Assembly (NCBI GenBank): GCA_000996245.1
Contig: LBYP01000002.1
Location: 5,352 to 69,351, forward strand
Length of the DNA stretch: 64,000 nucleotides
Source of the DNA: Parcubacteria group bacterium GW2011_GWA2_40_23
Lineage (GTDB): Bacteria > Patescibacteriota > Patescibacteriia > UBA11705 > JABHMO01
Direction: 5' to 3'
Part shown: piece by piece, positions 6,066-47,529 of the stretch
How the letters are laid out: each line of letters begins with the position of its first letter
Numbering within the stretch: position 1 is the stretch's first letter
The notes under the pieces: generated by a model
The model's input: the letters and a program-made list of their open reading frames with translations, nothing else
Databases searched by the model: none
Told to the model about the DNA's origin: nothing
Translations under genes and position numbers: made by a program

Positions 6066-6116
6066 ACTTATCTCGTTTACCCTGCACCCAAAGGCAGTTT
6101 GTGGTGCGGGGCTTAC
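6066..6116 (+). repeat. 51-nt structured intergenic element, copy 2
   Basis: acttatctcgtttaccctgcacccaaaggcagtttgtggtgcggggcttac. Flanked by cttatctcg direct repeats at 6067-6075 and 6123-6131. Confidence 0.65.
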
Positions 6117-6163
6117 GGCTTATCTCGCTATAAAATAAGAGTGATAAACCAAGCAGACGTTAA

Positions 6164-13532: not shown

Positions 13533-13705
13533 TCATATAAATATCAATTGTCTAGTAGAGGAGAATATGGATAATTTGTAATTCGTAAAATAATGTTTAA
13601 ATTTAGCTAAAATAAGTAAGTGTCCATATGATTCCTGTTGACAAACATAAGAAAGTATGTTATTGTTATGGCAATTGAACCTGTGCTACAACGATGGAGG
13701 AATCC

Positions 13706-13990
13706 ATGGATCTGATCGGATTGGACATGAAGGCTCGTCAGGCTCGGGAGAAGTTCACGGTCGTGACCAAGCTGGGTGATGCGGTCTGGACGCCGGCGGA
13801 GATCAACCGACTGGTGCACCAGTACAGAACCATCATCAGCACGCTTCCCAGGATGCCCTCCGTCGCGATTCTCGCGGGAGAGTACTCCAAGGACCAGCTC
13901 GTCGCGTTCCTCGGGACGGACAACTTCACCGTCGAGCTGATGGTCGGTCGCCAGAACCCCAAGCTGCCGTTCAGCGCTCCGATGCTCTGA
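13706..13990 (+). CDS. Small GC-rich protein, paralogue 1 (94 aa), unknown family
   Basis: GGAGGA SD 5 nt upstream. Shares KFTVVT..G..VW...RL...PR.SVAI.AGE.SK...LGTD.F.VEL.V with the next ORF. Confidence 0.5.
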   Translation: MDLIGLDMKARQAREKFTVVTKLGDAVWTPAEINRLVHQYRTIISTLPRMPSVAILAGEYSKDQLVAFLGTDNFTVELMVGRQNPKLPFSAPML

Positions 13991-14020
13991 GCGCGGCAAG
14001 TTCGAAAGAGAGGAACGGAC

Positions 14021-14248
14021 ATGCTGGTTCTGTTGACTCCTGCCAAGTTCACCGTCGTGACCTTGTTCGGTTTTGGGGTGTGGCATAAGGACGAGGTTCA
14101 ACGTCTGGCGAACAGGCTGAGAGCCTGCGTCTACACGTATCCAAGGAGGCTTTCGGTCGCGATCATCGCGGGAGAGCACTCCAAGGCTTCGATCGTGGAC
14201 GTCCTCGGTACGGACGACTTCGGCGTCGAGCTGAAGGTCAAGTGCTAG
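14021..14248 (+). CDS. Small GC-rich protein, paralogue 2 (75 aa)
   Basis: AGAGAGGAA SD. About 45% identical to paralogue 1 over the shared core. Confidence 0.5.
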   Translation: MLVLLTPAKFTVVTLFGFGVWHKDEVQRLANRLRACVYTYPRRLSVAIIAGEHSKASIVDVLGTDDFGVELKVKC

Positions 14249-14269
14249 AAACCAGTCACTCAAGGTTTC

Positions 14270-14341: not shown

Positions 14342-14364
14342 ATTATGCTAATATTTACTTGAAT

Positions 14365-17337
14365 ATGAGCTTATTAGAATCATCAAACAAAGAGCAGCTT
14401 TCAGCTATTATGCATGAGGCTGGGCCTCAGCTGATCGTTGCCGGAGCGGGGACGGGCAAGACGCGAGTAATTACAGCCCGTATAGCTTATTTAATTACAG
14501 AAAAAAACATAAATGTCGACGAAATTCTGGCTTTGACTTTTACTGACAAAGCAGCCGAAGAAATGGAAGAACGTGTAGATAAAATGTTGCCTTATGGCTA
14601 TGTCGACTTGTGGATTTCAACTTTTCACTCCTTTTGTGACAAACTATTAAAACGCCACGCTCTCGATATTGGACTCTCTAACAATTATAAACTTATAAAC
14701 GAAACTGAGGCTTGGTTACTGATTAAAAAGAATTTAGCGCGTTTTGATTTGGATTATTACCGTCCGCTTGGTAATCCAACCAAATTTATTCATGCTTTGC
14801 TAAAACATTTTTCGCGTTGTAAAGATGAGGGCATTTCGGCCGAAGAATATTTGGAATTTGCTGATGGTTTAAAATTGGACTTGGATGTAACTGATTATGT
14901 AAAAAAATTAGATTTGCCAGAAGACTTTGCGGAACTGAAGAAAGAAGAAAAACAAGCGTTGCTCAAACAGGAAATTATTCGAATTAATGAAATCGCTAAG
15001 GCATATCACACATATCAACAAATATTAATCGAAAATGATTGCTTGGATTTTGGCGATTTGCACAATTACGCCATTAAACTTTTTAAAGATCGTCCCTTGA
15101 TTTTAGATAAATATCGACGTCAATTTAAATATATACTTGTCGATGAATTTCAGGACACAAATTTTGTTCAATATGAACTCATCAAGCTTTTAGCAGCTCC
15201 CAAAAATAATTTGACAGTGGTGGGGGATGATGACCAGTCAATTTATAAATTCCGAGGAGCTTCTATTAGTAATATCATGCAATTTAAAGAAGATTACCCA
15301 AACGCGCAGGAAGTTGTCTTAACGGAAAACTATCGATCGGCGCAGGAAATTTTAGATTTGTCATATAATTTTATTAAGCAAAATGATCCTAATCGGTTGG
15401 AAGCGAAGTTGAATATCAATAAAAAATTAAAATCGAATAAAACTGAGCAGGGAGTTATCGATCACAAACATTTTGAAACTATCGATGCTGAAGCGCAGTT
15501 TGTTATAAGTCAGATTCGAGAAATACAAAAAGTAACTCAGTGCGAGTGGAAACAATTTGCCATATTGGTACGTGCCAATGAAAGCGCTAATATTTTTATT
15601 AGTTATTTAGATTCCGCAAATATTCCATATCAGTTCTTAGCATTACGTGGATTGTATACGAAGCCAGTCATTGTTGATTTGCTCAACTACCTAAAGTTGT
15701 TAGATGATTATCATGAGGGAGCTTCGGTTTATCGATTGTTAAATTTCCCATGTTTCAAATTAAAAACTGATCAAATCATCAAAATTGTTCATTATGCAAA
15801 GCAAAAAAGTTTTTCATTGTACGACACGTTGAAGAAGATTGTTATAATTCCTGGTATTGAAATGGAAACAATAACTCAGGTTGGGAAAATATATGCTCAG
15901 GTTGAAGCTGATACTGCTTTGGCACAAAAGAAACGTCCGACCGAAGTCTTGCTAAATTTTTTATACACTTCCGGTTATTTAGAACACGTAAAAAATTTGG
16001 ACGAAAAAATTGCTAAAGAAAATTTAGATTATATCCAACAGTTTTTTCAAAAAGTTAAAGAGATAGAAACCACTTACGAAGATGCGCGCATTAAAGATAT
16101 AGTCGAGGTTTTTGATTTAGAATTGCAATCTGGCGAAGCTGGGCGATTGGCTTTTGATGTTGAAACAGGTCCAGACATGGTAAAGGTCATGACAGTGCAT
16201 GGATCAAAAGGTTTGGAGTTTGACTATGTTTTCTTGCCAAATCTTGTCGACCGTAAATTCCCAACAGACGAACGCAAAGAGGCTATCGAGATTCCAGCAG
16301 CCTTGATTGAAGAAAAACTGCCCGAAGGTAATTTCCATTTAGAAGAAGAACGCCGACTTTTTTATGTGGCGATGACTCGAGCGCGACGTGGTTTATTTTT
16401 TACATCGGCAGAGGATTATGGCGGAGTACGCAAAAAAAGGTTATCGAGATTTTTAATAGAAATGGGTTATAAAAAAGATTATGACATCCAATCGACTGAA
16501 ACTATTTTAATCAAGCCAAGTAAATCATCAGCAGTTGATAAATTTGTTTATGAATTACCAAAAAGATTTAGCTTTTCGCAAATTGCAACTTACGAAAAAT
16601 GTCCTTTACAATACAAATACGGAAATATTTTAAAAATCCCAGCTTTTGGCAGTCATTATTTTACTTTTGGTACAATTATCCACTCAACTTTGCAGAAATT
16701 TCTAGAAGAATCGTATCAAGTTAATAATAATGTTCAAGAAGATTTATTTAGCAATATAAAAAAGACGATTAAAAAGGGAACTTTGCCCTTGGATCGATTG
16801 TATCAAGTTTATGATGATGTTTGGTTTGATGATTGGTTCCAAGATCCTAAGCAGAAAGAAGAATATTATAAAAAAGGAAAAGCTTTGCTGAAAAGTTTTC
16901 ATGCTGATTTTAATTCAGAGTTACCAGAAGTAAGAAATCTCGAAATATCATTTAAATTGCCAGTCGGCCCATATTTCTTTTCTGGTAGAATTGATCGAGT
17001 CGATAATTTAGAGTCTGGTTTAGTGCAGATCATTGATTATAAAACCGGGCAAGCCAAGGATGATAAATTAACAACAGATGACAAACGTCAACTTTTATTT
17101 TATCAGATTGCGGCCGAGGAAGCCTTAAAGTTGAAAGTTGAAAAGATGACATACCATTATTTAGAAGAAAATAAGAAAATATCTTTTATGGGTAAAGAAA
17201 AAGACAAGGAAGAATTAAAGAAAAGATTTATTGAAGATATTGAATTGATCAAGGCACAGAAATTCGAAGCCACGCCAAGTCCTTATGTTTGTGGTAGTTG
17301 CGATTATCGAAATATTTGTGAGCATAAAAAATTGTAA
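14365..17337 (+). CDS. UvrD/PcrA-family ATP-dependent DNA helicase with a C-terminal PD-(D/E)XK Cas4/RecB-like nuclease domain
   Basis: Walker A AGAGTGKT, DEFQD (motif II), and a C-terminal Cys cluster (CPLQYKYG ... CGSCDYRNIC). The ATG at 14365 is preferred over TTG at 14359. Confidence 0.85.
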   Translation: MSLLESSNKEQLSAIMHEAGPQLIVAGAGTGKTRVITARIAYLITEKNINVDEILALTFTDKAAEEMEERVDKMLPYGYVDLWISTFHSFCDKLLKRHALDIGLSNNYKLINETEAWLLIKKNLARFDLDYYRPLGNPTKFIHALLKHFSRCKDEGISAEEYLEFADGLKLDLDVTDYVKKLDLPEDFAELKKEEKQALLKQEIIRINEIAKAYHTYQQILIENDCLDFGDLHNYAIKLFKDRPLILDKYRRQFKYILVDEFQDTNFVQYELIKLLAAPKNNLTVVGDDDQSIYKFRGASISNIMQFKEDYPNAQEVVLTENYRSAQEILDLSYNFIKQNDPNRLEAKLNINKKLKSNKTEQGVIDHKHFETIDAEAQFVISQIREIQKVTQCEWKQFAILVRANESANIFISYLDSANIPYQFLALRGLYTKPVIVDLLNYLKLLDDYHEGASVYRLLNFPCFKLKTDQIIKIVHYAKQKSFSLYDTLKKIVIIPGIEMETITQVGKIYAQVEADTALAQKKRPTEVLLNFLYTSGYLEHVKNLDEKIAKENLDYIQQFFQKVKEIETTYEDARIKDIVEVFDLELQSGEAGRLAFDVETGPDMVKVMTVHGSKGLEFDYVFLPNLVDRKFPTDERKEAIEIPAALIEEKLPEGNFHLEEERRLFYVAMTRARRGLFFTSAEDYGGVRKKRLSRFLIEMGYKKDYDIQSTETILIKPSKSSAVDKFVYELPKRFSFSQIATYEKCPLQYKYGNILKIPAFGSHYFTFGTIIHSTLQKFLEESYQVNNNVQEDLFSNIKKTIKKGTLPLDRLYQVYDDVWFDDWFQDPKQKEEYYKKGKALLKSFHADFNSELPEVRNLEISFKLPVGPYFFSGRIDRVDNLESGLVQIIDYKTGQAKDDKLTTDDKRQLLFYQIAAEEALKLKVEKMTYHYLEENKKISFMGKEKDKEELKKRFIEDIELIKAQKFEATPSPYVCGSCDYRNICEHKKL

Positions 17338-17396: not shown

Positions 17397-18377
17397 CTAG
17401 TTGGTGAGCACGTGGCTGATGTCCATGTCCGGACTGACGATCAGCTTCTGTGCCGTGTTCTCGCCGATGACCTCGATCGCCTCGTTCGGACCCGTACCCA
17501 GGTTCGGGATGAACCCGATCTGGATGTACGAGTACTGCTCGAGGGGATCGACGTCGCAGCGCACGTCGAAGGCCGTCGTGGTGCCCTTGGGTAGGAAGAT
17601 GTCCGTCAGGTCATGGAAGACGAGCTGCGCGTTCCATCCCTCGGTGTTTACGTAGGGTTGACCCTGGTAGGCCAGGGTGTGGCCACCCGAGATCAGGCTG
17701 CAGTTGCGCACCTTCTCGAAGTGGTCCCCGGTCATCATCATCGACAGCGTGACCTCGGTGAGAACGCCGTCCTCGGCGTAGGCCGTGTCTTCGGCGTCGA
17801 CCATCAGGTAGAACGTGAACAAGTGGACCTGCGAACCTTCGACGAGCAGGTTGCTGGTTTCCTTCTTCCAGACCATGACGGTCGAGAATTGCGGCTCCAT
17901 GTACGGCGCGCAGACTTCTTCGACGGAGCAGTAGAACGTACGGTTGCCCCTGGCGATGGCGTCGTAGAAGGCTTGGAAGTTGCTGTGCCAGACGTTCATC
18001 ATCGCGATCTGCTTCTGCGCCGCGATCCGTCGCAGCTTGTAGGTCGGGATCATGGCGATGGGGTATTTGGGGTCTCCCGCCAAGGCCAGCTTGATCTTCC
18101 AGGTGTTGGTCGTCGCGTTCTGCGTCGCCTTGGCCAGGAACTGGCCCTCGTACTGGAAGTAGTAGCTGATGTTGTCGGTGAAGTTGGTCCACCCGACGCA
18201 GTCGGTGCCGTACCAGTCCGGCAACTGGCCGGTCAGGTTGAAGTAGTCGATGCTTTCCTGGTTGTACGTCTCGGCGACGTACTTGAGGTCGGCGAAGGTC
18301 TGGGGCGGACCGCCCCCGGCGTACGCGGCACTCGAGAAGCACAGGACGGCGAGCAGGGCGATGAGGGTCTTCTTCAT
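17397..18377 (-). CDS. GC-rich secreted protein of unknown function (326 aa)
   Basis: Signal peptide MKKTLIALLAVLCFSSAAYA. GAAGGAGGAA SD. Consensus promoter upstream. Natural amino-acid composition, unlike the overlapping frames. Confidence 0.6.
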   Translation of the reverse strand: MKKTLIALLAVLCFSSAAYAGGGPPQTFADLKYVAETYNQESIDYFNLTGQLPDWYGTDCVGWTNFTDNISYYFQYEGQFLAKATQNATTNTWKIKLALAGDPKYPIAMIPTYKLRRIAAQKQIAMMNVWHSNFQAFYDAIARGNRTFYCSVEEVCAPYMEPQFSTVMVWKKETSNLLVEGSQVHLFTFYLMVDAEDTAYAEDGVLTEVTLSMMMTGDHFEKVRNCSLISGGHTLAYQGQPYVNTEGWNAQLVFHDLTDIFLPKGTTTAFDVRCDVDPLEQYSYIQIGFIPNLGTGPNEAIEVIGENTAQKLIVSPDMDISHVLTN

Positions 18378-18476: not shown

Positions 18477-18661
18477 ACCTATTTTCATCGTTTTGCGAGC
18501 CTGCCTGCCGGCCAGGCAGGGAGCACTTTCGTTAAAAAGCGACGTGGCAATCTCTAATTCGATTTCTAATTAATCAAATCAATAGGTTATACATTTTTAT
18601 TCGTAAATTTAGCAAAATACTAGATACTGTCTAAGCGAACCTAACTGCAAATCGAGGATAC

Positions 18662-18696
18662 TAATCATGATAATCATGAAAATCATAGTTAATCAT
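18662..18696. repeat. Array of four (T/A)AATCAT direct repeats at 9-10 bp phasing
   Basis: TAATCAT at 18662, 18671 and 18690; AAATCAT at 18680. Same motif and phasing as 299-343. Confidence 0.4.
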
Positions 18697-18699
18697 GGC

Positions 18700-18735
18700 A
18701 AAAAAGAGCCCCACCGTTCGCGACGAACGGTGGGG
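18700..18735 (-). terminator. Intrinsic terminator, minus strand (perfect 12-bp stem CCCCACCGTTCG/CGAACGGTGGGG)
   Basis: Stem at 18709-18720/18724-18735 with A6 on the plus-strand 5' side. Confidence 0.7.
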
Positions 18736-18740
18736 CAGGG

Positions 18741-19364
18741 CTAGAAGTTCCAGACCAGGCGCAGGTACAGCACGTGGTCACCCGCGATCTCCGGCGTGAA
18801 GTCGTAGGCGACCCAGATTCGGCCCGCGCCGAGCAAGATCGAGGGGCCGATGGCCGCCTCGTCGAACGTCTTCTCGGAGAAGAAGTTCTCCTGGACGATG
18901 CCGAACCCAGCGATGTTGCCTGGCTTCATCCAGTCGAGGGTGGTCAGCGTGTAGTAGTTCCGCTGCACGTGCCCCTTGTCGCCGTCGACAGGGAAGTAGA
19001 CGTCGCCCTCGACGCACAGGAGCAGGTCGCTTGGCAAGGGCTGCGTGAGCCAGATGCTCGCGAGAGCGGACATGCCGCCGTCGTTGGTCATCCAGAGACC
19101 TCCCAGGAGCTTGAGGTTCGTCTTCGTCGACAGGACGCTCATCTCCGGCCCGAAGTAGCCGAAGATCATGGAGTTGCCGCGCATTGACACCAGGCCGGTG
19201 GCGTGGGCGTAGATGCCGCCCGTGATGTTCTCGCTGAGCGTGAACGGGGAGAAGGTTCGGCCCAGGGTGACCAGGAACTGGCCGTTGGACTCGACCTTGG
19301 CCTCGGCGGCCGTGGGGATGATCATCGCACACAGCAACAGGATCACGAGCAGGAAGCGCTTCAT
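18741..19364 (-). CDS. GC-rich small outer-membrane beta-barrel-like protein (208 aa)
   Basis: Signal peptide MKRFLLVILLLCAMIIPTAAEA. C-terminus ...YLRLVWNF (alternating hydrophobics ending in Phe). GGAGG SD. TTGACT promoter-like sequence upstream. Confidence 0.5.
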   Translation of the reverse strand: MKRFLLVILLLCAMIIPTAAEAKVESNGQFLVTLGRTFSPFTLSENITGGIYAHATGLVSMRGNSMIFGYFGPEMSVLSTKTNLKLLGGLWMTNDGGMSALASIWLTQPLPSDLLLCVEGDVYFPVDGDKGHVQRNYYTLTTLDWMKPGNIAGFGIVQENFFSEKTFDEAAIGPSILLGAGRIWVAYDFTPEIAGDHVLYLRLVWNF

Positions 19365-19438
19365 CGAAGCCTCCAAAGTGGTGTGACGTCCCGTGAAACA
19401 GGACATTCTAATTTATCATAAATAATAAAAAAGTCAAG

Positions 19439-19762
19439 ATGCAAGGCATTAGTGGTATACTAAAATCAACTTTCAATAAAAGAAGTGTCCTCAGCAAACA
19501 AGTGCAATCTGGGATGATTGTTGAGTTTGTTAATGAACTAATTCATGAATACTGGGGCAAAAAGGGCGCTGAACAGGCAAAGGCTAAATTTATAAAAAAT
19601 AAAATTTTAACTATATTTACTGTAAATGCAGGCATGTCGCAGGAAATTAAATTTAAACAAAATAAAATATTAGAAACAGTTAACACTAGGTTTGATGAGC
19701 GGGTACTTAATCAATTAAAAATCGTTGCCGGCGGAATTGACAAAGGCGATGATATACCGTAA
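19439..19762 (+). CDS. DUF721/DciA-like small protein (tentative)
   Basis: 107 aa; pattern ...W...G...A..T.P..L..G.L.V.V.s..w..EL... judged by eye to fit the DUF721 core. Confidence 0.35.
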   Translation: MQGISGILKSTFNKRSVLSKQVQSGMIVEFVNELIHEYWGKKGAEQAKAKFIKNKILTIFTVNAGMSQEIKFKQNKILETVNTRFDERVLNQLKIVAGGIDKGDDIP

Positions 19763-19797
19763 AACGAAGTGATGGCCTTTCCATCAAGGAGGTTCCC

Positions 19798-20115
19798 ATG
19801 GATGCACGACAAAAGGTCGTGGCAGTGTTCGATCTTCCGCACGGTGAAGGTCAGGTCGATCTGATGGTCGACATGGCACTTGAGTCCAGCTGGACTGGCC
19901 AAGGAATCGATACTTCGTACTTCATGTTCCACAAGCCGCACTGCGGCGGTCCCATGCGGCCGATCAAGGTGGCGGACAAGAAGATGGTTCTGTACTGCAG
20001 CGGTTGCGTGTTGCGTCTTCAGCTTCTGATCATGAAACTGCCTACGAACCTGGGCGAACTCGGTGAAGCGATCAACGAGACCTGCACGCATTCGGATCTG
20101 CCCTCACGTTTCTAA
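19798..20115 (+). CDS. GC-rich Zn-ribbon-like small protein (105 aa), unknown function
   Basis: AAGGAGGT SD. HKPHCGG...YCSGC Cys/His cluster. Strong terminator follows. Confidence 0.5.
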   Translation: MDARQKVVAVFDLPHGEGQVDLMVDMALESSWTGQGIDTSYFMFHKPHCGGPMRPIKVADKKMVLYCSGCVLRLQLLIMKLPTNLGELGEAINETCTHSDLPSRF

Positions 20116-35069: not shown

Positions 35070-35315
35070 ATGTCAAAACTAGTTGATTTTTTGAAGTTTC
35101 CGTGGCTAATTAGAAGCATACGTGAAATAAAAATTTTGTATTTAATTGTTTTTGTGATGTTGGCGGTACAAACAATTTTGTCCGCTCTTTTATTTATGCG
35201 TCTCGAGAAGCTTGATAATAGCTTTATCGATTACCGCGAAACATCCATGAAACGAATTAACCAGATTTACGGTCAGGTCTATTCCCTATCGTCGAGAATT
35301 GAAAATAAAAAATAA
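35070..35315 (+). CDS. Small single-TM protein
   Basis: 81 aa; its stop overlaps the next start (ATAATG). Confidence 0.35.
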   Translation: MSKLVDFLKFPWLIRSIREIKILYLIVFVMLAVQTILSALLFMRLEKLDNSFIDYRETSMKRINQIYGQVYSLSSRIENKK

Positions 35316-38300
35316 TGTATTTATATAATATAAAAATAAAATTTAGTATGACAAAAACAATTTTCATGAATCGTGCTTTTGTCAGTATTATCGCCGTGGT
35401 TACTGTTTTTACCATGAGCGGTATTGCTGGCTTAATACAACCGGCTAACGCAGCTAATCCCCCGCTTGATCCACCGTTAACAACGGCACTAGTTTATTCT
35501 AATCTTGTTGAACCAACAAATTTGACTGTTGGCGTGGATGGAAGTGTTTTGATTGCTGATTTTGACCTTCAAGGAAATGATCAACCATTAAGTAGTTTTA
35601 TGGTTTATGTTGAACCTGTAGGAGATTTTGACCCAGCAACTGATTTGGGTGCAGAAGGTTTGGCAAGTTTCACTCTTGGAATTGTTGAATCACCACAGGG
35701 GCCAGATGACGTTTTATTAAGTTTTATTGGAAACACTCCCATGGTTGGTTCGGGATTCTTTACTGGTATGTATGCTTATCAACTAACTCCAACCGGTTCA
35801 GATCCTTTAATTTCCAGTACCCTTACCACGTACTACCTAAACGCCGTGTATACGGATACGGCCGTTGTTGGGCATTCATTTGTGGTAAAAATCACTTCCC
35901 TTTCTGTTGCTTCTGGTGAATCTGCTGCAGTTTTTACGAACGTAGTTGGAGGTGATCCTGCATTACTAACAACAGAAACAATGACTTTTGTTGAAGGCGA
36001 AGAACCACCACCGGGTGGGGATGGTTTTTCCTTGGTCGCCTACGGTCCGATGCAACAAATGACTATTCCTAAATACGCTCCTGTAGATTTTTTCTTCAAT
36101 GAAGATTTAAATAGCGCTGTGAGAGCAGATTTAGATAGTTATTTTCAAACAGACCCGGTAGTTGCTGGCAATTGGAATCTCTATGATGAATATTGGGGCG
36201 AAAATCATATTTATCATGTTGGGTTTTTTCCGGCTGATGGTTGGGAGACAGGTACGTCTTACAATGTTAAAGCAGCAAAAAGCATTACAAACACTGAGGA
36301 TGAAGCATTTTCATTGGATTTGGGTGGCGGTGATGGTTTTGAATATGGTGACATGGCTTCTGACGAACTTTTTTATTATTTTACTGTTGTCGGTAGTGAT
36401 CAAGAAGACAGTGGTTACTTCCCTCCCATGGCTTTCTTGGGTTATCCTAATAATGAAATGCATAATGTACCAACAAGTTTACAACAGATAGGTGTTGAAT
36501 TTGATCGTAATGATATGGATGCTACAACGTTTACTAACGAAAATATTTATTTAGTCAAAGTTTCACCTGGCGGTGGCGAAGAGACGGTTGATGATGTAGA
36601 ACTATCCCCTGCAAGCGGCTTATCTGGCTCTGTAAGTTTGTCTGGATTTACATTAGAGGCAAATACTAAATATAGGGTTTATGTAACTCGCGATGTCATG
36701 GATAGCCGCGGGAATCGACTAGCTGGACAATTTAGTCAAGGTAGTGAACCCGGTCCCTTTACGAGCAGTTTTTATACTGGTGGAGGTTCAGATCAGCTTA
36801 TAGCTAGGTACATGGGCACAAATTTGAATTTTTTTAGAAATGGTGCCGGACAAATTGTTAACGTCCCCACGGCTGAAAATGTTCGACTATCATTTGACAA
36901 TCCTTTAATGGCCTCATCATTAACGGGCAATATTACAATTGAACCAAGCTTGGGCTGCGGTGAAGGTGGAGATTTATCTTTGTCGTATGATGCCAACTCT
37001 TTTGAAGCAATTGTAATCCCAAACTGTCTTTTTACCGCTTCAACTTCTTATACCTTAAGCTTTGAAGATTTAATGTCGGTTACGGGAACGGAGGTTAACG
37101 CTGGTAGTCTTGTTTTCACGACAGGACTAGCAGATGCCGCACAACCAACAATAAATTCTGTTATGGCCGACAATTATGGTTTGATAATTGAATTTAACGA
37201 GCCAATGGACACTACTCTTGCAGAAAACAAAGGAAACTATGCCTTAAAAGTGCGGAATGATGCTACAGACTGGGCAGAAGTTACAGCCACTCCACTTTCA
37301 AATGCTGTTGTCAGATATGAAAGTGATAATAAAACCGTGTTCATAGATATCTCATTGACTGCTGGGTCTGAATATCAAGTAACTGTCAGCAGCAATTTAA
37401 CAGATTTATCTGACAATCCCCTTTTGACTGATGGCGGTGTTAATGTTCGTACCGGTTATGTTATGGACGCGTCAAAATTTGCGGGCGGTCAAGGAAACCA
37501 AGGCATGGGTGGTAGTACTTTCGACATGGGAAACATGGGAGAAATGCCAATTGCTGTACGACCTATGTCAAAATTAGTTGGAGTTACAACAAAATATTTT
37601 GTTGATTTACCGATAAGTCAACAAATTAATGCTGGTGGCAAAATTGAATTTTGGTTCCCACAGGGATTTATAACGAGTGCTGCGATTCGTGATGCGCAAA
37701 GTCCAGTAAATGGTGACTTTAATCAACCAGCACCAGGTAAACCAAGTTTTGCGAATACAGATCCTGCCGGCACAACCAGTAATGGTGTTGCCAATGATGG
37801 TATTGGCATAATCGGCGAGCGAACTATTGTAATTAAGTTGAGCGAGGGTACTATGCCACAGGATTTTTTGCGTATCGACCTTGATGGCATTGTCAATTCT
37901 TCTACTGTGAAAAAAGAAGATACGGCAGGTTGGCAGGTCAGCATAATGACATATAATTCTTCAGGTGTAATGTTAGAAGGGCTTACATCAATGCCATTTT
38001 ATACGAGTGCTGGTGGTACAAATTCATTGACGGTTGACATTGATGGCGTTAGTGACGGTGACGATGGTTCTTTGGGAGTTTACCTATTCTCCCCCATGAC
38101 CGGTCAAATTATGCAAACAGCGACAATTACGGGCGATGAGTCAGAAGGGGTGGCCGATGGTAGTGTCACTTTCAATAATTTAGATGATGGACAATATGAG
38201 TTCTTCACAGATAAAAATGCACAACTAGATGGCAATATGTACTATGGGAATTCATTTATGGATAGTATTTCGCTGTCAGGCGGTGAGGATGAAACAAGAG

Positions 38301-41300
38301 AAATTATCTTTTCTGATCCTGCAACGCAAGACAATTTATACGCATTAGAAGTTACATTAATTGGAGATTTTACAACCGATGGCGAAAATGACAATGTTGA
38401 TATTTTTGCTGGTTCACCAAATGGATTTCGGGTTATCACGGCTTCACCGGGCAATACTGCTGGTTATCCTGTGACTCTATATTTACCTGATGGTGAATGG
38501 AATGTCGGTATGGGGCCGGCCATGTCTGCAACATCAACGATGGCTTCTCAAATAGATTGGATGCCACCACAAAATCAATTTGTTAAGGTTTGGAATAATG
38601 GATGGAATGCGAGCGTGCAAGAAGTAATATTGGATAGCAGTAATATAGAACAGTATTCAATCAGCGGATCAGTTGTTGATGAAAATGATGTTGGAATTGC
38701 TGATGTTGAAGTTTATGCCTATCAACCGCAAGCAAGTTTCGGAAAACAAAGTGTTAAAACGCAGTCAGATGGTTCTTTTGTCTTGAACGTAGGCTGGCCG
38801 GGTGTTTATACTCTTGGTACAAATAAAAATGGTTTTCCGGAGTCTTCACAGCAATCGATTGCGGTTAATGATGATGTCTCTGATGTTAGTTTTGTGTTGA
38901 AAAAACCAGCTTTTACAATTTCTGGCATGGTAAAAGATTATAATGGTAATGGCGTCCCTAACGCTCCTGTTTGGTCCTATCAAACAGCGGGTGGATTTGG
39001 CTGGTCTGGGACATCAACAGACGTAACAGGTTCATTTATTCTTTATGTTGATACGGGTACTTGGATGGTTGAATCAGACCCAAAAAGTGTCGGGTGGATG
39101 CAATACTCTGATGCAATTGAAATAACAGATGAATCTGTCAGTGGCATTACACTCCAACCAGATACTGATCTTGATTATGTAACCATAACAGGAAATGTAA
39201 GCATAGATGGTAATGCATATACGTACGGACCTATTCGGGCTGTAAAATACAATGCCAATGGGTCATTCGCTGGTCAGCAATATGGTGGTCAAACTGATAG
39301 TCAAGGAGATTATTCAATAACAGTACCAGAAGGAATTTATCGTGTAGATATTTGGGCTCCTGGTTATGGAGAGATTGAACGAACAGACTCTGATGATTAT
39401 CCAAATAACCCTGCAAACGTAAATGCAACCAGTGGCAATGTTGACGGAGTTGATATTACTGTCGGTGCGGATGACTTAATTGATGTCAGCGTTAATTTTA
39501 CAAATCTCGATAGCGGCGAATATGACGGTGTGTCAGCTTTTGTAACACTTAGTGCTGTTAACTTGGGGACAGGAATCCCTACCGGATACAAAAACAATAT
39601 CATGATCAAAAACATTGCTGACCCAACTTTTGATAATATTGTTAAGGTCAAGGAAGGAAATTATTTTGCCTTTGTTCAAGTGCCAGGGTATGGTGAATTT
39701 ATTCCGTTAGAGGGCCAACTAAATGCGGCCACAACACCAGGATACATTGATGTAGGCGCTGGAAGTACCGATAGTAATACACTCACTATTGATCTTCCGG
39801 ATGTAGATAATTTAATTACAGTCACTGGCTCTGTAATTGATGCAGAAGAAAGTCCAGTAGAAAATGCTTGGGTGACAATCAATAACATGGAAAAAGGTTT
39901 TAATCGCGGAGTTAATACTGATAGTAGCGGTGAATTTTCGATTAATTTACCGGTTCTTCAATCAGGAAATTATAATATTGCTGTTGGTAAACCAGGTTAT
40001 ATGGCTGTGACGCCAGAAGCTGTTGATTTAACTGATGTAAATCTAAATGGTATTGCTGATGCATTATATGAATTTACACTTCAACAGCAAACAGCACTTA
40101 TTACAGGTAATATATTTGCTGATAAAGATGGAGGCACAAATAATGTTCTTGATGTGGGAGAAGGTCTCGCTTATGGTTGGATCTTTGCTCAAGAAACAAT
40201 TACAGGTCTAGTAAGTAATACACCTGTTGATGGCAAAGGATATTATCAACTTGGAGTTGTTAATGGTACCTGGGAAGTTTTTGGTAATGCGGATGGATAT
40301 GAACAAACACAGTATAAATCGGGCGGAGTACCTGCAACGATTGTTGTCAACAATGGAAACCAAACCAACAAAAATATTGAACTTGGTTTGCGTGCAGATT
40401 GGAACAAAAAAACCAAAAAGAGCCCCATGACTTTGAATCAAGGTGGTACTATTGATGATTCAGCTTCAACCGGAACTGGTGTTAAATTGGTTGTTCCAGC
40501 GAATGCCATGGGGACATCAAGTTCTTCTGGGTCATTCAATATATCGAACACAACATCAGTTGGTTCATCTAATACGTCTAGACCCTTTGGTATGGAAGGA
40601 AAAGTTGTTAGTGCTGTTGATGCAGATGGTCAACCAATCACGACATTAAGCGATTACATTGACATTGAAATGGTTGTTTGGAAATCAGAAGTTGATGCTG
40701 AAATTGCAGCTGAAAGAATGACTGAAATGTCTGATCTTTTATCCGCTCAACTTGGGTATTATGACAATTCAACAGATAATTGGGTCGCATTAGAAACAAC
40801 GCGTGTCGCCTACTATCAAGAAAATGAAGATGATGCAGAATGGAAAACTTACATTAGCGATGATGAAACATTAAATGATTATGAAGCTTTTATTACGGAT
40901 GCTTTGATTGACGAAACCTTCACTGCTTATTTCGACTATAAGCTTGTTTTCACAGCCAAAACAAACCACTTAACGACTTTTGGGGTAACAACCGCGCTCG
41001 GTGTTGCCGGTGGCGAGGAATCAGCTAATGATGCACCAAGAAGCACTAGCGGCGCCGGTTCAGCTGTTATTCTTGTAACTGAAACAATTGTAGACAAAGC
41101 TATTACAGTTCCCCTTTCAACTTCATCATCAACAGTAGTTTTATCAAAGGCAGGGACTATGAATTTTACAAGCTCCGGTTTAGCTCATAGTTTAACGCTC
41201 AAAAATGTTGATGTGACTGGTCAGTCAGCAATTTTAGTAGTAGCGAGTACCCCCTTCGAAGTAACGGCTAAATTGAACAAGGCGGAATTAGTAGACATAA

Positions 41301-42001
41301 ATAAAGATGGTGTTAATGACATGGAAGTCTTGTTAACAGCGATAAATTCAGCAAATGATGTGAAATTAACAGTGAAGTTATTAGTTGGGGCGAGTATAGT
41401 CCCTCCAGGAGCCGTTGTGACACCAACTCCTGTAGCTGAAACACCCGCAACCACAGCTGTTACCACAGAGTATATGCCTCGTAAAGCTGCTGTGATTAAT
41501 CTTATGAGTGAACAGCAGGCCTTAACTGACTTCATTGCTTTGACAAAACTCGTACCAAACACGCAAGCCGACAACTGGGTAGTAGATTACCTTGCTTATG
41601 GTAATTCAACTCGTACCTTGGCAATGTCAGCTCGAGAAAGAAAGGGCATCTTGGAAGATTTTATCTCAATTTATGGCAACTTACCTAAGACTGAAAGTGA
41701 TTGGAAGGCTCTAGCTGAAATAGCGGCCGGTAAAGTCACTCCTAAGCGTGTTATTGCTCAGGAAGTTAAAGCGATCAAGGAATTCTTTAAAATCTTTAAG
41801 AAGACTGTTAATTTTAAAGATAAAACCAACGAATCCTTTGTTCACAAATTGTCTTATAGAATGCGAGTTGATCAGCGGAATTTAGCTAAGGAGCAAACAG
41901 CTTTAACTAAATTTATAAAAGTGTATCAAAAGAAGCCTTGGGATGGATATGCTTGGTCGATTGTGAGAGCACTCGCCTATTCTGGGATATTAGACAAATA
42001 A
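35315..42001 (+). CDS. Giant secreted/surface protein (2228 aa) with tandem Ig-like and carboxypeptidase-regulatory-like beta-sandwich repeats
   Basis: Signal peptide (...GIAGLIQPANA). At least five repeats of the pattern hydrophobic-T/S-I-S/T-G-x-V-x-D...G-V-Y-T-L. Confidence 0.7.
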   Translation: MYLYNIKIKFSMTKTIFMNRAFVSIIAVVTVFTMSGIAGLIQPANAANPPLDPPLTTALVYSNLVEPTNLTVGVDGSVLIADFDLQGNDQPLSSFMVYVEPVGDFDPATDLGAEGLASFTLGIVESPQGPDDVLLSFIGNTPMVGSGFFTGMYAYQLTPTGSDPLISSTLTTYYLNAVYTDTAVVGHSFVVKITSLSVASGESAAVFTNVVGGDPALLTTETMTFVEGEEPPPGGDGFSLVAYGPMQQMTIPKYAPVDFFFNEDLNSAVRADLDSYFQTDPVVAGNWNLYDEYWGENHIYHVGFFPADGWETGTSYNVKAAKSITNTEDEAFSLDLGGGDGFEYGDMASDELFYYFTVVGSDQEDSGYFPPMAFLGYPNNEMHNVPTSLQQIGVEFDRNDMDATTFTNENIYLVKVSPGGGEETVDDVELSPASGLSGSVSLSGFTLEANTKYRVYVTRDVMDSRGNRLAGQFSQGSEPGPFTSSFYTGGGSDQLIARYMGTNLNFFRNGAGQIVNVPTAENVRLSFDNPLMASSLTGNITIEPSLGCGEGGDLSLSYDANSFEAIVIPNCLFTASTSYTLSFEDLMSVTGTEVNAGSLVFTTGLADAAQPTINSVMADNYGLIIEFNEPMDTTLAENKGNYALKVRNDATDWAEVTATPLSNAVVRYESDNKTVFIDISLTAGSEYQVTVSSNLTDLSDNPLLTDGGVNVRTGYVMDASKFAGGQGNQGMGGSTFDMGNMGEMPIAVRPMSKLVGVTTKYFVDLPISQQINAGGKIEFWFPQGFITSAAIRDAQSPVNGDFNQPAPGKPSFANTDPAGTTSNGVANDGIGIIGERTIVIKLSEGTMPQDFLRIDLDGIVNSSTVKKEDTAGWQVSIMTYNSSGVMLEGLTSMPFYTSAGGTNSLTVDIDGVSDGDDGSLGVYLFSPMTGQIMQTATITGDESEGVADGSVTFNNLDDGQYEFFTDKNAQLDGNMYYGNSFMDSISLSGGEDETREIIFSDPATQDNLYALEVTLIGDFTTDGENDNVDIFAGSPNGFRVITASPGNTAGYPVTLYLPDGEWNVGMGPAMSATSTMASQIDWMPPQNQFVKVWNNGWNASVQEVILDSSNIEQYSISGSVVDENDVGIADVEVYAYQPQASFGKQSVKTQSDGSFVLNVGWPGVYTLGTNKNGFPESSQQSIAVNDDVSDVSFVLKKPAFTISGMVKDYNGNGVPNAPVWSYQTAGGFGWSGTSTDVTGSFILYVDTGTWMVESDPKSVGWMQYSDAIEITDESVSGITLQPDTDLDYVTITGNVSIDGNAYTYGPIRAVKYNANGSFAGQQYGGQTDSQGDYSITVPEGIYRVDIWAPGYGEIERTDSDDYPNNPANVNATSGNVDGVDITVGADDLIDVSVNFTNLDSGEYDGVSAFVTLSAVNLGTGIPTGYKNNIMIKNIADPTFDNIVKVKEGNYFAFVQVPGYGEFIPLEGQLNAATTPGYIDVGAGSTDSNTLTIDLPDVDNLITVTGSVIDAEESPVENAWVTINNMEKGFNRGVNTDSSGEFSINLPVLQSGNYNIAVGKPGYMAVTPEAVDLTDVNLNGIADALYEFTLQQQTALITGNIFADKDGGTNNVLDVGEGLAYGWIFAQETITGLVSNTPVDGKGYYQLGVVNGTWEVFGNADGYEQTQYKSGGVPATIVVNNGNQTNKNIELGLRADWNKKTKKSPMTLNQGGTIDDSASTGTGVKLVVPANAMGTSSSSGSFNISNTTSVGSSNTSRPFGMEGKVVSAVDADGQPITTLSDYIDIEMVVWKSEVDAEIAAERMTEMSDLLSAQLGYYDNSTDNWVALETTRVAYYQENEDDAEWKTYISDDETLNDYEAFITDALIDETFTAYFDYKLVFTAKTNHLTTFGVTTALGVAGGEESANDAPRSTSGAGSAVILVTETIVDKAITVPLSTSSSTVVLSKAGTMNFTSSGLAHSLTLKNVDVTGQSAILVVASTPFEVTAKLNKAELVDINKDGVNDMEVLLTAINSANDVKLTVKLLVGASIVPPGAVVTPTPVAETPATTAVTTEYMPRKAAVINLMSEQQALTDFIALTKLVPNTQADNWVVDYLAYGNSTRTLAMSARERKGILEDFISIYGNLPKTESDWKALAEIAAGKVTPKRVIAQEVKAIKEFFKIFKKTVNFKDKTNESFVHKLSYRMRVDQRNLAKEQTALTKFIKVYQKKPWDGYAWSIVRALAYSGILDK

Positions 42002-44956: not shown

Positions 44957-45220
44957 AATTTATGTAAATTTCATCAACATTATAGTCTATTTTGAGCAAC
45001 AAGTAAATGACAGTCAAGGTCAACGAATATATTGGCTAAATTTATTTAAAATATTGACATATCGTTTGAAGGGGTTGACAAAATTGTAATTATTTGCTAT
45101 TATTACCTGTTATTCAAGTGTTTACCTTAGCTTTTTGAGGCTGAGTTAATTTCCGCCTTTTAAAGGTGTAGTGAACACCACAAGTGATCTGTTCCCCAAC
45201 CATCCGTGAGGAGGTGCCTG

Positions 45221-46735
45221 ATGCTGTACCAGAAACTGCTCGATGCGAAGATCGGAGTCGGTCCGGCCACCATCACCAAGCTCGACGAGGCGGGTCTCAA
45301 GACCGCCGAGGCCATCCTGGCCGCCGGGCTCGACGGGCTGCGCGCCATCAAGGTCTTCCCGCCGATCGCGGGCAAGATCCTCGAGGTCGCGCTCGCCAAC
45401 CCGACGCCCGCCACCGAGATCGAGGCCGCGTCGGCCCCGATCATCCTCCACCCCGACGACGCGGCCAAGGTGGCCGAGGTCGCCCCCACCACCACGAAAA
45501 ACGAGACCCCCGCGGTCCTGGTCAAGCGGCAGACGGTGTTCGCCGCCAAGCTCGAGGAGGCCGCCAAGGCCAACGGTACGACGGTGGAGGAGCTCCGCGC
45601 CGCCGCCAAGGCCAACGTGCCGGCCGAGAAGCCGGTCGTGGTGACCCACAAGACCCTGGCCAAGCCCGAGAACGAGCACGTGAACTTCATCGACGTCGGG
45701 ATCGAAACCCCGACCGAGTTCACGAGCCCCGTGCGTCTGCGCGACTTCTTCGACAAGCTGCCCAAGGGGCAGGTGCCGGACAGCGCGCGCTACATCAAGA
45801 ACCTCTTCCCCGTCTGCGCGATGTGTCGCGCCGCGGGCAGCACGAAGACCCTCCAGATCGACCACGTGCACGTGCTCGTGGTCACCCGTCTCGACGGCAG
45901 CGTCAACAGCGGTTTGTTCTGCGACGACCACATCACGGTGGCGTACGGACAGGCCAAGGACCTGGTCAAGGACGGGAAGCTGAAGGAGGTCAAGATCATC
46001 TGGCTGCGCGAGGCGTGGGCCAACCTGACCCGCGCGTACAGGGCGCAGGTCGACGAGGCGCGCGAAGAGCGCTACCGCAAGGAGCGCGCCGACCGCCGCA
46101 CGGCCGCCCTCCGGGCCGTGATGGAGGATCTCGGCTCGGTGACCAGCGAGCACTGGATGACCGACGAGCAGCTCGGCAGCTACGTGTCGCCCATGGACGT
46201 CCCGGTCTTCACGTGCGGACTCGAGGCGAAGCAGGCCCGTGAGCTGCACCTCCTGCCCAACGACAAGGAGAAGGGTACGTTCAAGGGGCGCTGGGGGCGG
46301 TTCTACGACGAGTACGGCATCCGGCTCGTCATGCGGCCCCCGCAGGACCTGACCCAGCACAACACGCTCGTCCAGCACTTGCGGGACGACGCCAAGGCCG
46401 CCCAGGCCACGCCGTTCTTCCCCGTCGTCCTGGTCCGCCGTTACTTCGGTGACGACCTGGGCTGGCGCTACCTGGCGATCCACGAACTGGTCATCGAGGA
46501 GTTCGTGGCGACCTACGAGCAGGCGCACAACTTCAAGGTGCGCACCGGGGCCATGGCCTACGAGTGGCTGACCCGTCGCTGGGAGGTCCAGCGCGAAGAA
46601 GCCGCCAAGGCCGCGGCGCAGGCGTTCGCCAAGAGCGACGAAGGCAAGGCGCTGAACGCCTTCCTCAACGCCGCCCCGGACGACGAGGCCGCCGCCGACA
46701 GCGCCCTGTTGGCCGGCAGCGCCCACAAGAAGTAA
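45221..46735 (+). CDS. GC-rich 504-aa protein with N-terminal tandem helix-hairpin-helix motifs and a central HNH-like nuclease motif
   Basis: GAGGAGGTG SD. HhH motif LLDAKIGVGPATITKL. HNH-like motif CAMC..LQIDHVHV..(12)..NSGLFCDDH. Confidence 0.5.
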   Translation: MLYQKLLDAKIGVGPATITKLDEAGLKTAEAILAAGLDGLRAIKVFPPIAGKILEVALANPTPATEIEAASAPIILHPDDAAKVAEVAPTTTKNETPAVLVKRQTVFAAKLEEAAKANGTTVEELRAAAKANVPAEKPVVVTHKTLAKPENEHVNFIDVGIETPTEFTSPVRLRDFFDKLPKGQVPDSARYIKNLFPVCAMCRAAGSTKTLQIDHVHVLVVTRLDGSVNSGLFCDDHITVAYGQAKDLVKDGKLKEVKIIWLREAWANLTRAYRAQVDEAREERYRKERADRRTAALRAVMEDLGSVTSEHWMTDEQLGSYVSPMDVPVFTCGLEAKQARELHLLPNDKEKGTFKGRWGRFYDEYGIRLVMRPPQDLTQHNTLVQHLRDDAKAAQATPFFPVVLVRRYFGDDLGWRYLAIHELVIEEFVATYEQAHNFKVRTGAMAYEWLTRRWEVQREEAAKAAAQAFAKSDEGKALNAFLNAAPDDEAAADSALLAGSAHKK

Positions 46736-46855: not shown

Positions 46856-47473
46856 ATGAATGCGAAACATCTTCCTCCGCCCACTCCCACGACGCTCTCC
46901 GAAGCGTTTTGGCCCCTGTTCATGACGAACAAAGTGATGGTGCGTTTTGTCGGTGCGTATATCTGCTTCGGCGTGGCAGATGACAGCAACCGACTACTCG
47001 TAGTGTATGCACACGACACTGCCAGCCGATTGCATCTTCCTACACAGGAAGCAATTGCTCGAGCGTTCCCTCTGCGGAATGCCAAACAACAAGAATACAC
47101 CGGACCACATGATCTGCCAGTGTCGTACAGTGACATTCAACGAGTTCGCAACGTGATGCGTTATGAGTTTCTTCAGGAAAACCGGCGCGTCTTACTGCTT
47201 GTTTCGACTCCTGAGGAGTCGGTAGTTGAAAACCAGGAACAACTCATGTTCATCCAATGGAGTAGACCGAACCCACTTCAAATTGCTCGCATCGTCGAAA
47301 CTATTGGTGCGGATCGTGTCCACGTCGTACGAAAAAATGCGCTGGAAACGCGCCTCCTGGTGGAGTTGAAACCCAATGAACGATTGAAGTTCTCTGTGAC
47401 CGGTTGCCACTTCAGCAGCCCCTTTGCAACTGCGGCTCTGTTGCCGGTGCAGTGCGACACCTGCACTGCTTGA
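46856..47473 (+). CDS. Moderately GC-rich 205-aa protein, unknown function
   Basis: AAGGAG SD. Natural composition. Terminator follows. Confidence 0.45.
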   Translation: MNAKHLPPPTPTTLSEAFWPLFMTNKVMVRFVGAYICFGVADDSNRLLVVYAHDTASRLHLPTQEAIARAFPLRNAKQQEYTGPHDLPVSYSDIQRVRNVMRYEFLQENRRVLLLVSTPEESVVENQEQLMFIQWSRPNPLQIARIVETIGADRVHVVRKNALETRLLVELKPNERLKFSVTGCHFSSPFATAALLPVQCDTCTA

Positions 47474-47478
47474 AAATA

Positions 47479-47519
47479 AGCCAGCCTTGATCCTCGAATC
47501 TTGGCTGGCTTTCTTTTTA
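47479..47519 (+). terminator. Intrinsic terminator (AGCCAGCC-loop-GGCTGGCT followed by TTCTTTTT)
   Basis: 8-bp stem plus a U tract. Confidence 0.65.
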
Positions 47520-47529
47520 CAAAATAAAT

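Follow-up and report, generated by a model that had tools for sequence, protein, structure and literature searches.

A predicted membrane-type beta-barrel gene with GC-rich third codon positions at a conserved locus in Parcubacteria

We analysed a 64-kb window of contig LBYP01000002.1 (hereafter the window; this stretch, and not the whole genome, is the scope of the analysis), with a focus on a GC-rich gene for a predicted beta-barrel protein (the barrel gene) that lies between dciA and an addA-like helicase-nuclease gene. Backbone proteins encoded in the window are identical to GenBank entries KKR075xx of Parcubacteria group bacterium GW2011_GWC2_39_14, a metagenome-assembled genome of the Candidate Phyla Radiation (CPR) from groundwater. 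The core genes in the window include the ATP synthase operon, six aminoacyl-tRNA synthetases, mreBCD-pbp2, greA and the gene of an ftsQ-type POTRA protein, accompanied by xerC/D, clpB, priA, def-fmt, queA, glycosyltransferases and a gene for a surface protein of 2228 amino acids (aa).

The barrel protein (MKRF...LRLVWNF, with the N-terminus MKRFLLVILLLCAMIIPTAAEA followed past the cleavage site by KVES, and the C-terminus DHVLYLRLVWNF) has 207 residues, not the 208 given in the initial annotation. We placed its start at the ATG at 19364, which has GGAGG 5 nt ahead of it and agrees with the orthologs, every one of which begins MKR or MNR; this spacing and these ortholog starts make a 221-aa alternative from the ATG at 19406 less likely. 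The signal peptide that had been proposed is borne out by sequence reading, with an n-region (K2 R3), an h-region (F4-I16) and a cleavage site A20-E21-A22/K23 following the AXA rule, and by an AlphaFold model in which residues 2-14 form a detached helix. Three long open reading frames (ORFs) overlap at this locus, and GC-rich DNA yields long ORFs in several frames; the barrel frame is nevertheless not a chance ORF, because of its GC content by codon position (0.54/0.41/0.94), its homolog family and its confident fold. A structured RNA in place of a coding sequence was ruled out by the strong codon periodicity and the lack of an Rfam match.

The barrel gene is predicted to be expressed from strong-looking signals of its own. 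As had been noted from the DNA, it has its own TTGACT promoter (TTGACT-16-TAAATT with a TG extension), a GGAGG site 5 nt before the ATG and a terminator, although the terminator stem counts 13 bp rather than 12 bp. The promoter architecture (TTGACT/TTGACA ... TGnTAAAnT) is kept in the orthologs, and an equivalent terminator-like hairpin is present 3' of every one of them. Promoter-like sites number 7 in the 3.1-kb region around the gene, versus 2.3 +/- 1.5 expected. The transcription start, from which the leader in Table 1 is measured, was deduced from the position of the -10 box. The spacer past the terminator (18500-18521, 18660-18705) holds four CATGATTA-like repeats and a GC-rich palindrome, cctgcctgccggccaggcaggg, and is not conserved in the closest relative.

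The gene has a GC content of 63% inside a 35% GC backbone, and the GC step coincides with the gene. Its GC content at third codon positions (GC3) compares with 0.24-0.38, mostly about 0.28, in some 45 backbone genes; the values at the first two positions (GC1 and GC2) and the amino-acid make-up are near those of the backbone. The codons TTC, ATC, AAC and TAC are used at 100%, AAG at 95% and CAG at 92%, versus 17-27% in the backbone, and CAC and GAC reach 95%. Four-fold codon families are also pushed to G or C, with no clear single preferred codon. We rejected ordinary translational optimisation as an explanation, since ATP synthase subunits, MreB and ClpB have a GC3 of 0.25-0.29 and codon preferences opposite to those of the barrel gene.

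Table 1. Coordinates of the barrel gene, its signals, the flanking anchor genes and the other GC-rich genes of the window
Feature	Position	Strand	Properties
Barrel-protein coding sequence	18741..19364	-	207 aa; residues 1-22 signal peptide; mature part with 11 predicted strands; GC 63%, GC3 0.94
Sigma-70-like promoter of barrel gene	19410..19437 (read 19437 to 19410)	-	TTGACT-16-TAAATT with TG extension; in AT-rich spacer common to divergent dciA
Inferred 40-nt 5' leader of barrel gene	19365..19404	-	GC 0.57 versus 0.24 in promoter region directly upstream
Hairpin GTCCTGTTTCACGGGAC	19404 to 19388	-	Opens the leader; -9.4 kcal/mol
GGAGG ribosome-binding site	19374 to 19370	-	Inside the leader; cctcc on the + strand (19370-19374)
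Intrinsic terminator of barrel gene	18708..18736 (read 18736 to 18708)	-	13-bp stem (13 pairs including 10 G-C), 3-nt loop, T-run; starts 5 nt past the stop codon
dciA	19439..19762	+	AT-rich backbone gene, GC3 0.29
addA-like helicase-nuclease gene	14359-17337		UvrD/PD-(D/E)XK; with dciA, the conserved anchor flanking the GC-rich genes in all relatives
326-aa gene	17397..18377	-	GC3 0.91; signal peptide; promoter 18476 to 18448 (TTGACA-17-TAGAAT); terminator 17370 to 17345
105-aa gene	19798..20115	+	CxxC pairs; GC3 0.68; far side of dciA
98-aa gene	13694-13990	+	GC3 0.84; tandem with 75-aa paralog, upstream of addA
75-aa gene	14021-14248	+	GC3 0.79; tandem with 98-aa paralog, upstream of addA
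504-aa gene	45221..46735	+	GC3 0.95; promoter TTGACA-17-TATTAT and terminator
205-aa gene	46856..47473	+	Intermediate GC3 0.54; promoter TTGACA-17-TATGAT and terminator

To characterize the protein family, we performed an exhaustive profile search against 1.84 billion cluster representatives with a cut-off of E <= 0.001, yielding 47 cluster-representative relatives, nearly all 185-225 aa long and with a signal peptide. AlphaFold run on 40 sequences gave five concordant models with a predicted local distance difference test (pLDDT) of 93.2 and a predicted template modelling score (pTM) of 0.82; on six sequences only, the pLDDT was 77. In the model the signal helix is followed by an unbroken up-and-down beta meander with short turns and 11 strands by DSSP, which are 8-19 residues long (most 10-14; the first strand 19). 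Outer-membrane barrels predominate among the better Foldseek matches in the PDB, the top ones being the 12-strand intimin/invasin and EspP beta-domains, KdgM, NanC, COG4313 and PcoB.

The family alignment shows a dyad pattern in 11 of the 11 strands. Mean Kyte-Doolittle values of +0.6 to +2.1 (+1.5 to +2.1 in nine strands) mark one face as hydrophobic, and this face is generally less conserved; the other is polar (mean -0.1 to -1.4), more conserved in 9 of the 11 strands and the site of the invariant residues Q29, S103, W105, D121, Y123, E159, D188 and R202. Identity between orthologs follows the topology, from 0.67-0.82 in the lumen through 0.54-0.65 on the lipid face down to 0.12-0.37 in one set of loops; the turns opposite these variable loops retain motifs such as DGG and DGxxGH. 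In a soluble barrel it is the hydrophobic side that forms the core and is conserved. A variable hydrophobic face and a conserved polar face thus argue for a lipid-embedded barrel with a functional lumen.

We then compared the 40 family members with Pfam one by one and obtained marginal matches only, the best three of which (E 0.002-0.005) were to the outer-membrane-barrel families DUF481 (YdiY-like), Phenol_MetA_deg and BBP2. Each was matched by only 1-2 of the 40 members, which is too weak for membership, and the window protein itself matched no Pfam, NCBIfam, PHROGs or PADLOC model. Its C-terminus (LYLRLVWNF) does alternate as first described, with F, W, L, L and L at positions 0, -2, -4, -6 and -8, but to call this a classic BamA beta-signal was too strong: the last residue is F in only 8 of the 40 members and L in about 18, the remaining members ending in P, I, Q, H, E, K or N, and across this motif region R202 alone is invariant. 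The outer-membrane-type barrel itself, as named in the initial annotation, is upheld by the predicted meander, the dyad pattern, the Foldseek barrels and the marginal Pfam matches. On the strength of the model, the protein is likely a membrane-type beta-barrel, belonging to a new family of about 200 aa with predicted transmembrane-barrel architecture that has no Pfam or NCBIfam model and whose relationship to known outer-membrane proteins would be remote at best. The greasy, variable outside and polar, conserved lumen suggest that it probably forms a pore or channel.

The solved barrels closest to it are the KdgM/NanC porins, the COG4313 (Phenol_MetA_deg) channels and the intimin/EspP beta-domains, which resemble it in size (about 185 mature residues), antiparallel meander, short turns, hydrophobic exterior, polar lumen and signal peptide, with best Foldseek template modelling (TM) scores of 0.44-0.58. 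They differ in having 12 strands versus 11 by DSSP and in the lack of any significant sequence or profile match, and, unlike them, the barrel comes from a group of organisms without a known outer membrane or beta-barrel assembly machinery (BAM). The fold class is therefore known, the family is new and the lineage unexpected. No Omp85/BamA-type gene was found within the window, in which the one POTRA match is of the FtsQ type, and none of the core genes there points to an outer membrane. CPR gene content is without PilQ and TonB-ExbBD, and an outer membrane is reported absent (PMC6744442); cryogenic transmission electron microscopy of ultrasmall CPR cells shows a surface layer, no outer membrane and attachment to Gram-negative hosts with two lipid layers (PMC7906910); and the missing outer membrane is treated in further literature on the CPR envelope (PMC10160955, PMC8871954). 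That the backbone looks monoderm-like, as the initial annotation had held, accords with a lineage regarded as lacking an outer membrane (PMC6744442, PMC7906910, PMC10160955).

We next asked whether the gene is native. A contig independently assembled in Logan from SRR3309152 is 100% identical to the window over 1153 bp and four AT/GC junctions, covering dciA, the AT-rich promoter, the GC-rich barrel gene, the AT-rich spacer and the next GC-rich gene; this identity across the junctions, together with orthologous mosaics from many samples, rules out contamination or a chimeric assembly. Barrel orthologs with 46-67% amino-acid identity lie between dciA and addA in related contigs (L002-L011 and L014-L019) taken from JGI, ENA and Logan, representing many unrelated samples and one GTDB representative genome. 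The same locus is thus occupied in at least 7 other related lineages, and the barrel gene is at dciA-addA in every related contig recovered (the metagenome scan used a 12-sequence subset of the 40-sequence family alignment, the full set being too diverse). Among distant members, P0021 carries a Parcubacteria annotation and likewise has dciA and addA as neighbours, P0015 adjoins ruvB and efp, and P0055 lies on a 36% GC contig of CPR-like content including CarS-like, TrmB and VanW genes; wherever the context is readable, the family was found only in Parcubacteria or CPR-like contigs. The barrel gene had been regarded as out of place, which holds for its composition (63% versus 35% GC), whereas the horizontal or contaminant origin proposed with it does not fit the conserved locus and the identical junction contig.

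We found no barrel homolog in viral (IMG/VR), phage or plasmid collections (using tblastn for phages and plasmids), and a phage, plasmid or defence origin is unsupported given this result, the lack of a PHROGs match and the lack of a significant PADLOC match. No tRNA gene occurs within the window, no integrase adjoins the barrel gene and no repeats flank its locus; the XerC/D-like gene is 14 kb away, at a position conserved in L024. A diversity-generating retroelement was rejected, as no GC-rich segment is repeated in the window and no reverse-transcriptase domain was present among the scanned genes. We consider it very likely that the barrel gene is native to Parcubacteria and vertically inherited.

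Two observations concern the relatives themselves. The GTDB representative carrying an ortholog (L011/L024, CAZMEQ010000005.1) is titled "uncultured Gammaproteobacteria bacterium", a label that looks wrong: for the gltX and clpB products, identity with those of the Parcubacteria window reaches 82% and 92%, and its gene order is the same. In one subclade (L017, 1915-2568; L018, 5719-6372), a second, very divergent barrel-family member (217 aa, GC3 0.65, family profile E about 1e-6) lies directly downstream of the first, and in L018 it is followed by a 359-aa gene with a GC3 of 0.86.

The compositional contrast is inherited along with the locus. Barrel orthologs have a GC3 of 0.78-0.95 and the adjoining dciA genes one of 0.20-0.36, between lineages whose deeper members are separated at dciA by a synonymous divergence (dS) of 1.9 or more, i.e. 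saturated. The gene is not an un-ameliorated recent import, because the GC-rich state outlasts a divergence that saturates dciA synonymous sites. We quantified divergence by simple Nei-Gojobori estimates under extreme base bias, and the nonsynonymous (dN) and dS values below are to be read as such. Backbone proteins share 90-99% identity with those of a close relative (L014/L020; dN <= 0.06, dN/dS <= 0.08), whereas in the same comparison the barrel protein is 67%, the 504-aa protein 67% and the 326-aa protein 45% identical, with dN of 0.25-0.53 and apparent dN/dS of 0.55-0.85 for the GC3-rich genes, whose proteins evolve 5-10 times faster than the backbone. In the more distant L024, the 504-aa ortholog is down to 35% identity and its GC3 is still 0.95 (0.94-0.95 across the L020 and L024 orthologs). 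GC3 climbs with dN across genes, from 0.54 at 0.08 and 0.68 at 0.12 to 0.91-0.95 at 0.25-0.53. The apparent proportion of synonymous differences (pS) of the GC3-rich genes, 0.34-0.42, is about the saturation expected under a two-letter third position. With far more diverged proteins and an unchanged GC3, the proteins therefore drift fast while third positions stay G or C. Hypermutation is not needed, since a dN of 0.25-0.53 is below the backbone dS of about 0.6-1.7 and relaxed constraint suffices.

More distantly in the family, GC3 exceeds that of the surroundings by varying amounts (0.85 versus about 0.42 in L022, 0.75 versus about 0.6 in L023 and 0.41 versus 0.32 in L012), and the extreme value in the window clade looks like an exaggerated trait of the barrel gene itself and not a donor signature. 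The gene is also a mosaic: identity with the closest relative is 76-89% over the signal-peptide region and the final 57 residues but only 42% over residues 23-60, where distant species reach 58-66%. Exchange between alleles, or a spell of rapid change in the exposed part, is therefore also at work. Altogether, we hold it to be highly probable that the GC3 of the GC-rich units is actively maintained.

To locate where this pressure acts, we examined the non-coding DNA around the genes. The inferred leaders (35-45 nt) of seven diverged orthologs are 47-60% GC, or 43-57% without the ribosome-binding site, versus 22-32% in the promoter regions directly upstream; in the window, the 363-bp spacer between the barrel and 326-aa genes has a low GC content and is little conserved. 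With GC-rich leaders and an AT-rich upstream promoter and spacer, the enrichment seems to apply to the transcript as a unit, rather than to codons alone or to a wide stretch of DNA. GC enrichment of the non-coding leader argues against purely tRNA-based selection, and conversion tracts are argued against because they should spill into the conserved AT-rich dciA. A hairpin at the leader start recurs in 4 of 7 ortholog groups at -7 to -9.4 kcal/mol, with differing stem sequences (single-sequence folds); a 5' hairpin with a strong terminator is the classic layout of a long-lived mRNA. That maintenance acts on the transcript is, on these sequence features, a tentative proposal to which we give slightly less than even weight.

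We put these elements together in a joint reading, for and against which we see the balance as even: a native, exported CPR barrel encoded by an actively GC-recoded unit, with maintenance at the transcript level and residence in a non-cytoplasmic lipid layer. The protein, of about 185 mature residues, would be exported by Sec and fold as a small transmembrane pore with a polar, conserved lumen and a variable, lipid-facing outside. Its location would be a lipid layer distinct from the cytoplasmic membrane of the cell itself. This could be the outer membrane of a Gram-negative host where the cells attach, or else an outer layer of the symbiont that has gone unrecognised, and the hypervariable loops of one side would face the partner or the environment. 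These two sites are favoured because imaged CPR cells have no outer membrane and attach to Gram-negative hosts; residence in the host membrane specifically is doubtful, though a serious candidate. The GC-rich mRNA might be hardened against AU-directed decay, or might belong to a special expression regime for fast-evolving genes.

Several points weigh against this reading. On the protein side, the TM-scores to solved barrels are modest and no Foldseek E-value is <= 0.001, the 40-member profile found nothing at E up to 10 among PDB sequences and no significant outer-membrane-family match, and the DSSP strand count of 11 is odd; we know of no odd strand number among bacterial outer-membrane proteins, nor of any insertion route for a monomeric barrel with a hydrophobic belt in a monoderm. 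Signal peptides are present in only 2 of the 7 GC-rich genes of the window, so these genes have no obvious common function. On the RNA side, the 5' hairpin is absent from one subclade, RNAalifold across eight leaders gave no consensus structure, and the case for transcript-level selection consists of the GC boundaries and the leader GC at an inferred start. Holding a GC3 of 0.94 versus 0.28 in the backbone corresponds to a scaled coefficient of selection or conversion of about ln(15.7 x 2.6), roughly 3.7 per site as a rough equilibrium estimate, a large value for organisms in which codon selection is expected to be weak.

The GC bias does not appear to stem from foreign origin or tRNA-matched translation; a local DNA process is a third rival. 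If the GC-rich genes came from GC-rich donors (e.g. a diderm host) and were un-ameliorated, or were repeatedly replaced from a GC-rich pool, one would understand a codon usage like that of a genome of about 65-70% GC, the variation among relatives in the GC-rich gene set between dciA and addA, the residues 23-60 that are nearer to distant orthologs than to the closest species, and the imperfect 30-nt direct repeat that brackets the 45-47.5 kb island. We nonetheless judge this very unlikely: the locus is the same in all relatives and GC3 stays at 0.78-0.95 past dciA saturation, GC1, GC2 and amino acids are near those of the AT-rich backbone, the GC boundaries track a transcription unit with native AT-rich promoters, the family is confined to Parcubacteria and CPR-like contigs with one member of near-normal GC3, viral, phage and plasmid matches and adjacent mobility or tRNA genes are lacking, and the bracketing repeat is not conserved in L024. 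Frequent recombination among divergent alleles, perhaps under diversifying selection on surface proteins, could instead act through GC-biased gene conversion, or GC-biased repair or mutation could be tied to transcription. Such a local DNA process would account for the shift toward GC of all three codon positions and the untranslated leader, for the rise of GC3 with protein divergence across genes and for the mosaic identity that suggests recombination within the barrel gene; it is rather unlikely, given boundaries too sharp for it (the adjoining dciA at a GC3 of 0.29, the promoter at a GC of 0.24, an AT-rich spacer between GC-rich genes), no repeated donor copies within the window and a shift from 0.28 to 0.94. 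To our knowledge, the gene-conversion effects reported in bacteria are small, and this shift is far above them. Quite unlikely, in turn, is a codon-dialect regulon whose G/C-ending codons need particular tRNAs or modifications and are translated in a state-dependent manner, e.g. in starved or unattached cells; NAC codons with a final C, for instance, do not need queuosine. It would explain the total or nearly total use of NAC codons and AAG, the strong promoters and ribosome-binding sites common to the gene set and the presence of queA in the window (62748-63779), and codon-biased translation programmes are known in mycobacteria. The GC enrichment, however, reaches the non-coding leader and codon positions 1 and 2, contrary to what selection by tRNAs predicts, the four-fold families move to G/C with no clear single preferred codon, and backbone genes for which good expression would be expected (ATP synthase, MreB, ClpB) are unshifted.

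Two further alternatives concern the protein and its place of expression. The barrel might not be membrane-embedded at all and might be a soluble or wall/S-layer-associated beta-barrel or sandwich, e.g. a ligand binder, whose hydrophobic surface packs on other subunits. The odd strand count, the modest TM-scores to true outer-membrane proteins, the imaged CPR cells without an outer membrane (PMC7906910) and the missing sequence-level membership in a known outer-membrane family all speak for it, and we consider it unlikely in view of a hydrophobic face that is generally less conserved while the polar face holds the invariant residues, of strand lengths and short turns that fit a membrane span, and of the predominance of membrane barrels among the better structural matches and in the best marginal Pfam matches. 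It is extremely improbable that the GC-coded genes are effector cassettes whose codon dialect is that of a GC-rich Gram-negative host, kept for expression in this host once DNA or mRNA has passed over at the attachment site, much as the T-DNA genes of Agrobacterium are kept for use in plants. Each cassette would then bring its near-consensus sigma-70 promoter, perfect ribosome-binding site and own terminator; by way of its signal peptide and C-terminal motif, the barrel would pass through the Sec and BAM machinery of the host and serve as a feeding pore in the outer membrane there; and the AT-adapted symbiont would itself translate the gene poorly.

In its composition, this gene class fits no standard category (islands, translational optimisation or gene conversion). 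Bacterial genomes are held to be compositionally uniform save for recent imports drifting to the norm; islands ameliorate and bear mobility marks, and translational optimisation follows the genome's own preferred codons. The units of the window are like horizontal genomic islands in their sharp departure in GC and codon usage and in the variable gene content at the locus, but they are single transcription units with native AT-rich promoters, syntenic across deep divergence, with no amelioration, mobility genes or identifiable donor. Another parallel is the GC3-rich gene class of grasses (PMC2895627), in which a gene subset is likewise kept at a very different third-position composition; the class described here differs in belonging to a tiny bacterial genome, in its contrast of 0.94 versus 0.28, and in consisting of transcript-bounded, fast-evolving genes without families. 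Codon-biased stress regulons in mycobacteria are also a subset with its own third-position composition. In E. coli, the ompA mRNA is an abundant barrel mRNA to which a 5' stem-loop confers a long half-life, and the window gene is like it in its 5'-end hairpin and strong terminator; unlike ompA, which is not recoded relative to its genome, the window gene has kin in which the hairpin is seen in only 4 of 7 ortholog groups. A literature search returned no description of GC3-rich genes or beta-barrels in CPR. Units with a GC3 of about 0.95 in a genome with a GC3 of 0.28, kept in one protein down to 35% identity, amount to an actively maintained second codon dialect and a tractable system in which to separate selection on mRNA composition, biased conversion and translation control. 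CPR bacteria are regarded as monoderms whose outer membrane was lost. A conserved barrel family in Parcubacteria would for its part need a membrane, be it an unrecognised outer lipid compartment or that of hosts in which pores are planted, and either location would bear directly on how obligate CPR symbionts feed.

The barrel gene is one of at least seven self-contained, single-gene GC-rich units in the window, each with its own near-consensus promoter, GGAGG site and terminator (Table 1). The six others have no family match. The 326-aa gene stands beside the barrel gene in some relatives and is absent from others, and the two paralogs upstream of addA share the pattern KFTVVT...VW...RL...SVAI(L/I)AGE(Y/H)SK...LGTD(N/D)F(T/G)VEL. 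Public annotation mis-frames GC3-rich genes (window 13607-14263 and 19711-20091; L024 5570-6889): KKR07561 (218 aa) is an antisense ORF over these paralogs, KKR07567 (126 aa) is an antisense ORF over the 105-aa gene, and in GCA_964565345.1 the 511-aa gene has been given the wrong frame (GC1 0.95). Logan gene calls are the only records that contain the barrel, 326-aa, 105-aa and 504-aa products in exact form. GC3-rich proteins are thus largely invisible in CPR catalogues, because gene finders trained on the AT-rich backbone mis-frame them.

At both edges of the two-gene GC-rich island at 45.0-47.5 kb lies a 30-nt direct repeat (44948-44977 and 47514-47543, 83% identical), one copy of which is the 3' end of the wecG-NUDIX gene. 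It is probably not an insertion footprint, as it is found in L020 but not in L024, where the island persists, and we regard it as weak or due to chance. The gene for the 2228-aa surface protein (Big_5, CarboxypepD_reg; 35315-42001) lies between xerC/D and an M23 peptidase gene; it is present in L020, and its position is taken by an 89-aa gene in L024 (1962-2231). Positions 300-1250 of the window have a GC content of 55-61% in AT-rich surroundings, with no codon periodicity and no clean ORF. For this region Rfam yielded nothing at the gathering threshold, nor at E <= 1 (two weak small-RNA matches only); no tRNA or transfer-messenger RNA was found, and it may be an undescribed structured RNA. 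Finally, a perfect 52-nt inverted repeat (2179-2230 and 6066-6117, arms 3.8 kb apart) encloses metG and the DNA from there to where the ATP synthase operon starts; it could be either a terminator-like element present twice or the two ends of a segment able to invert.

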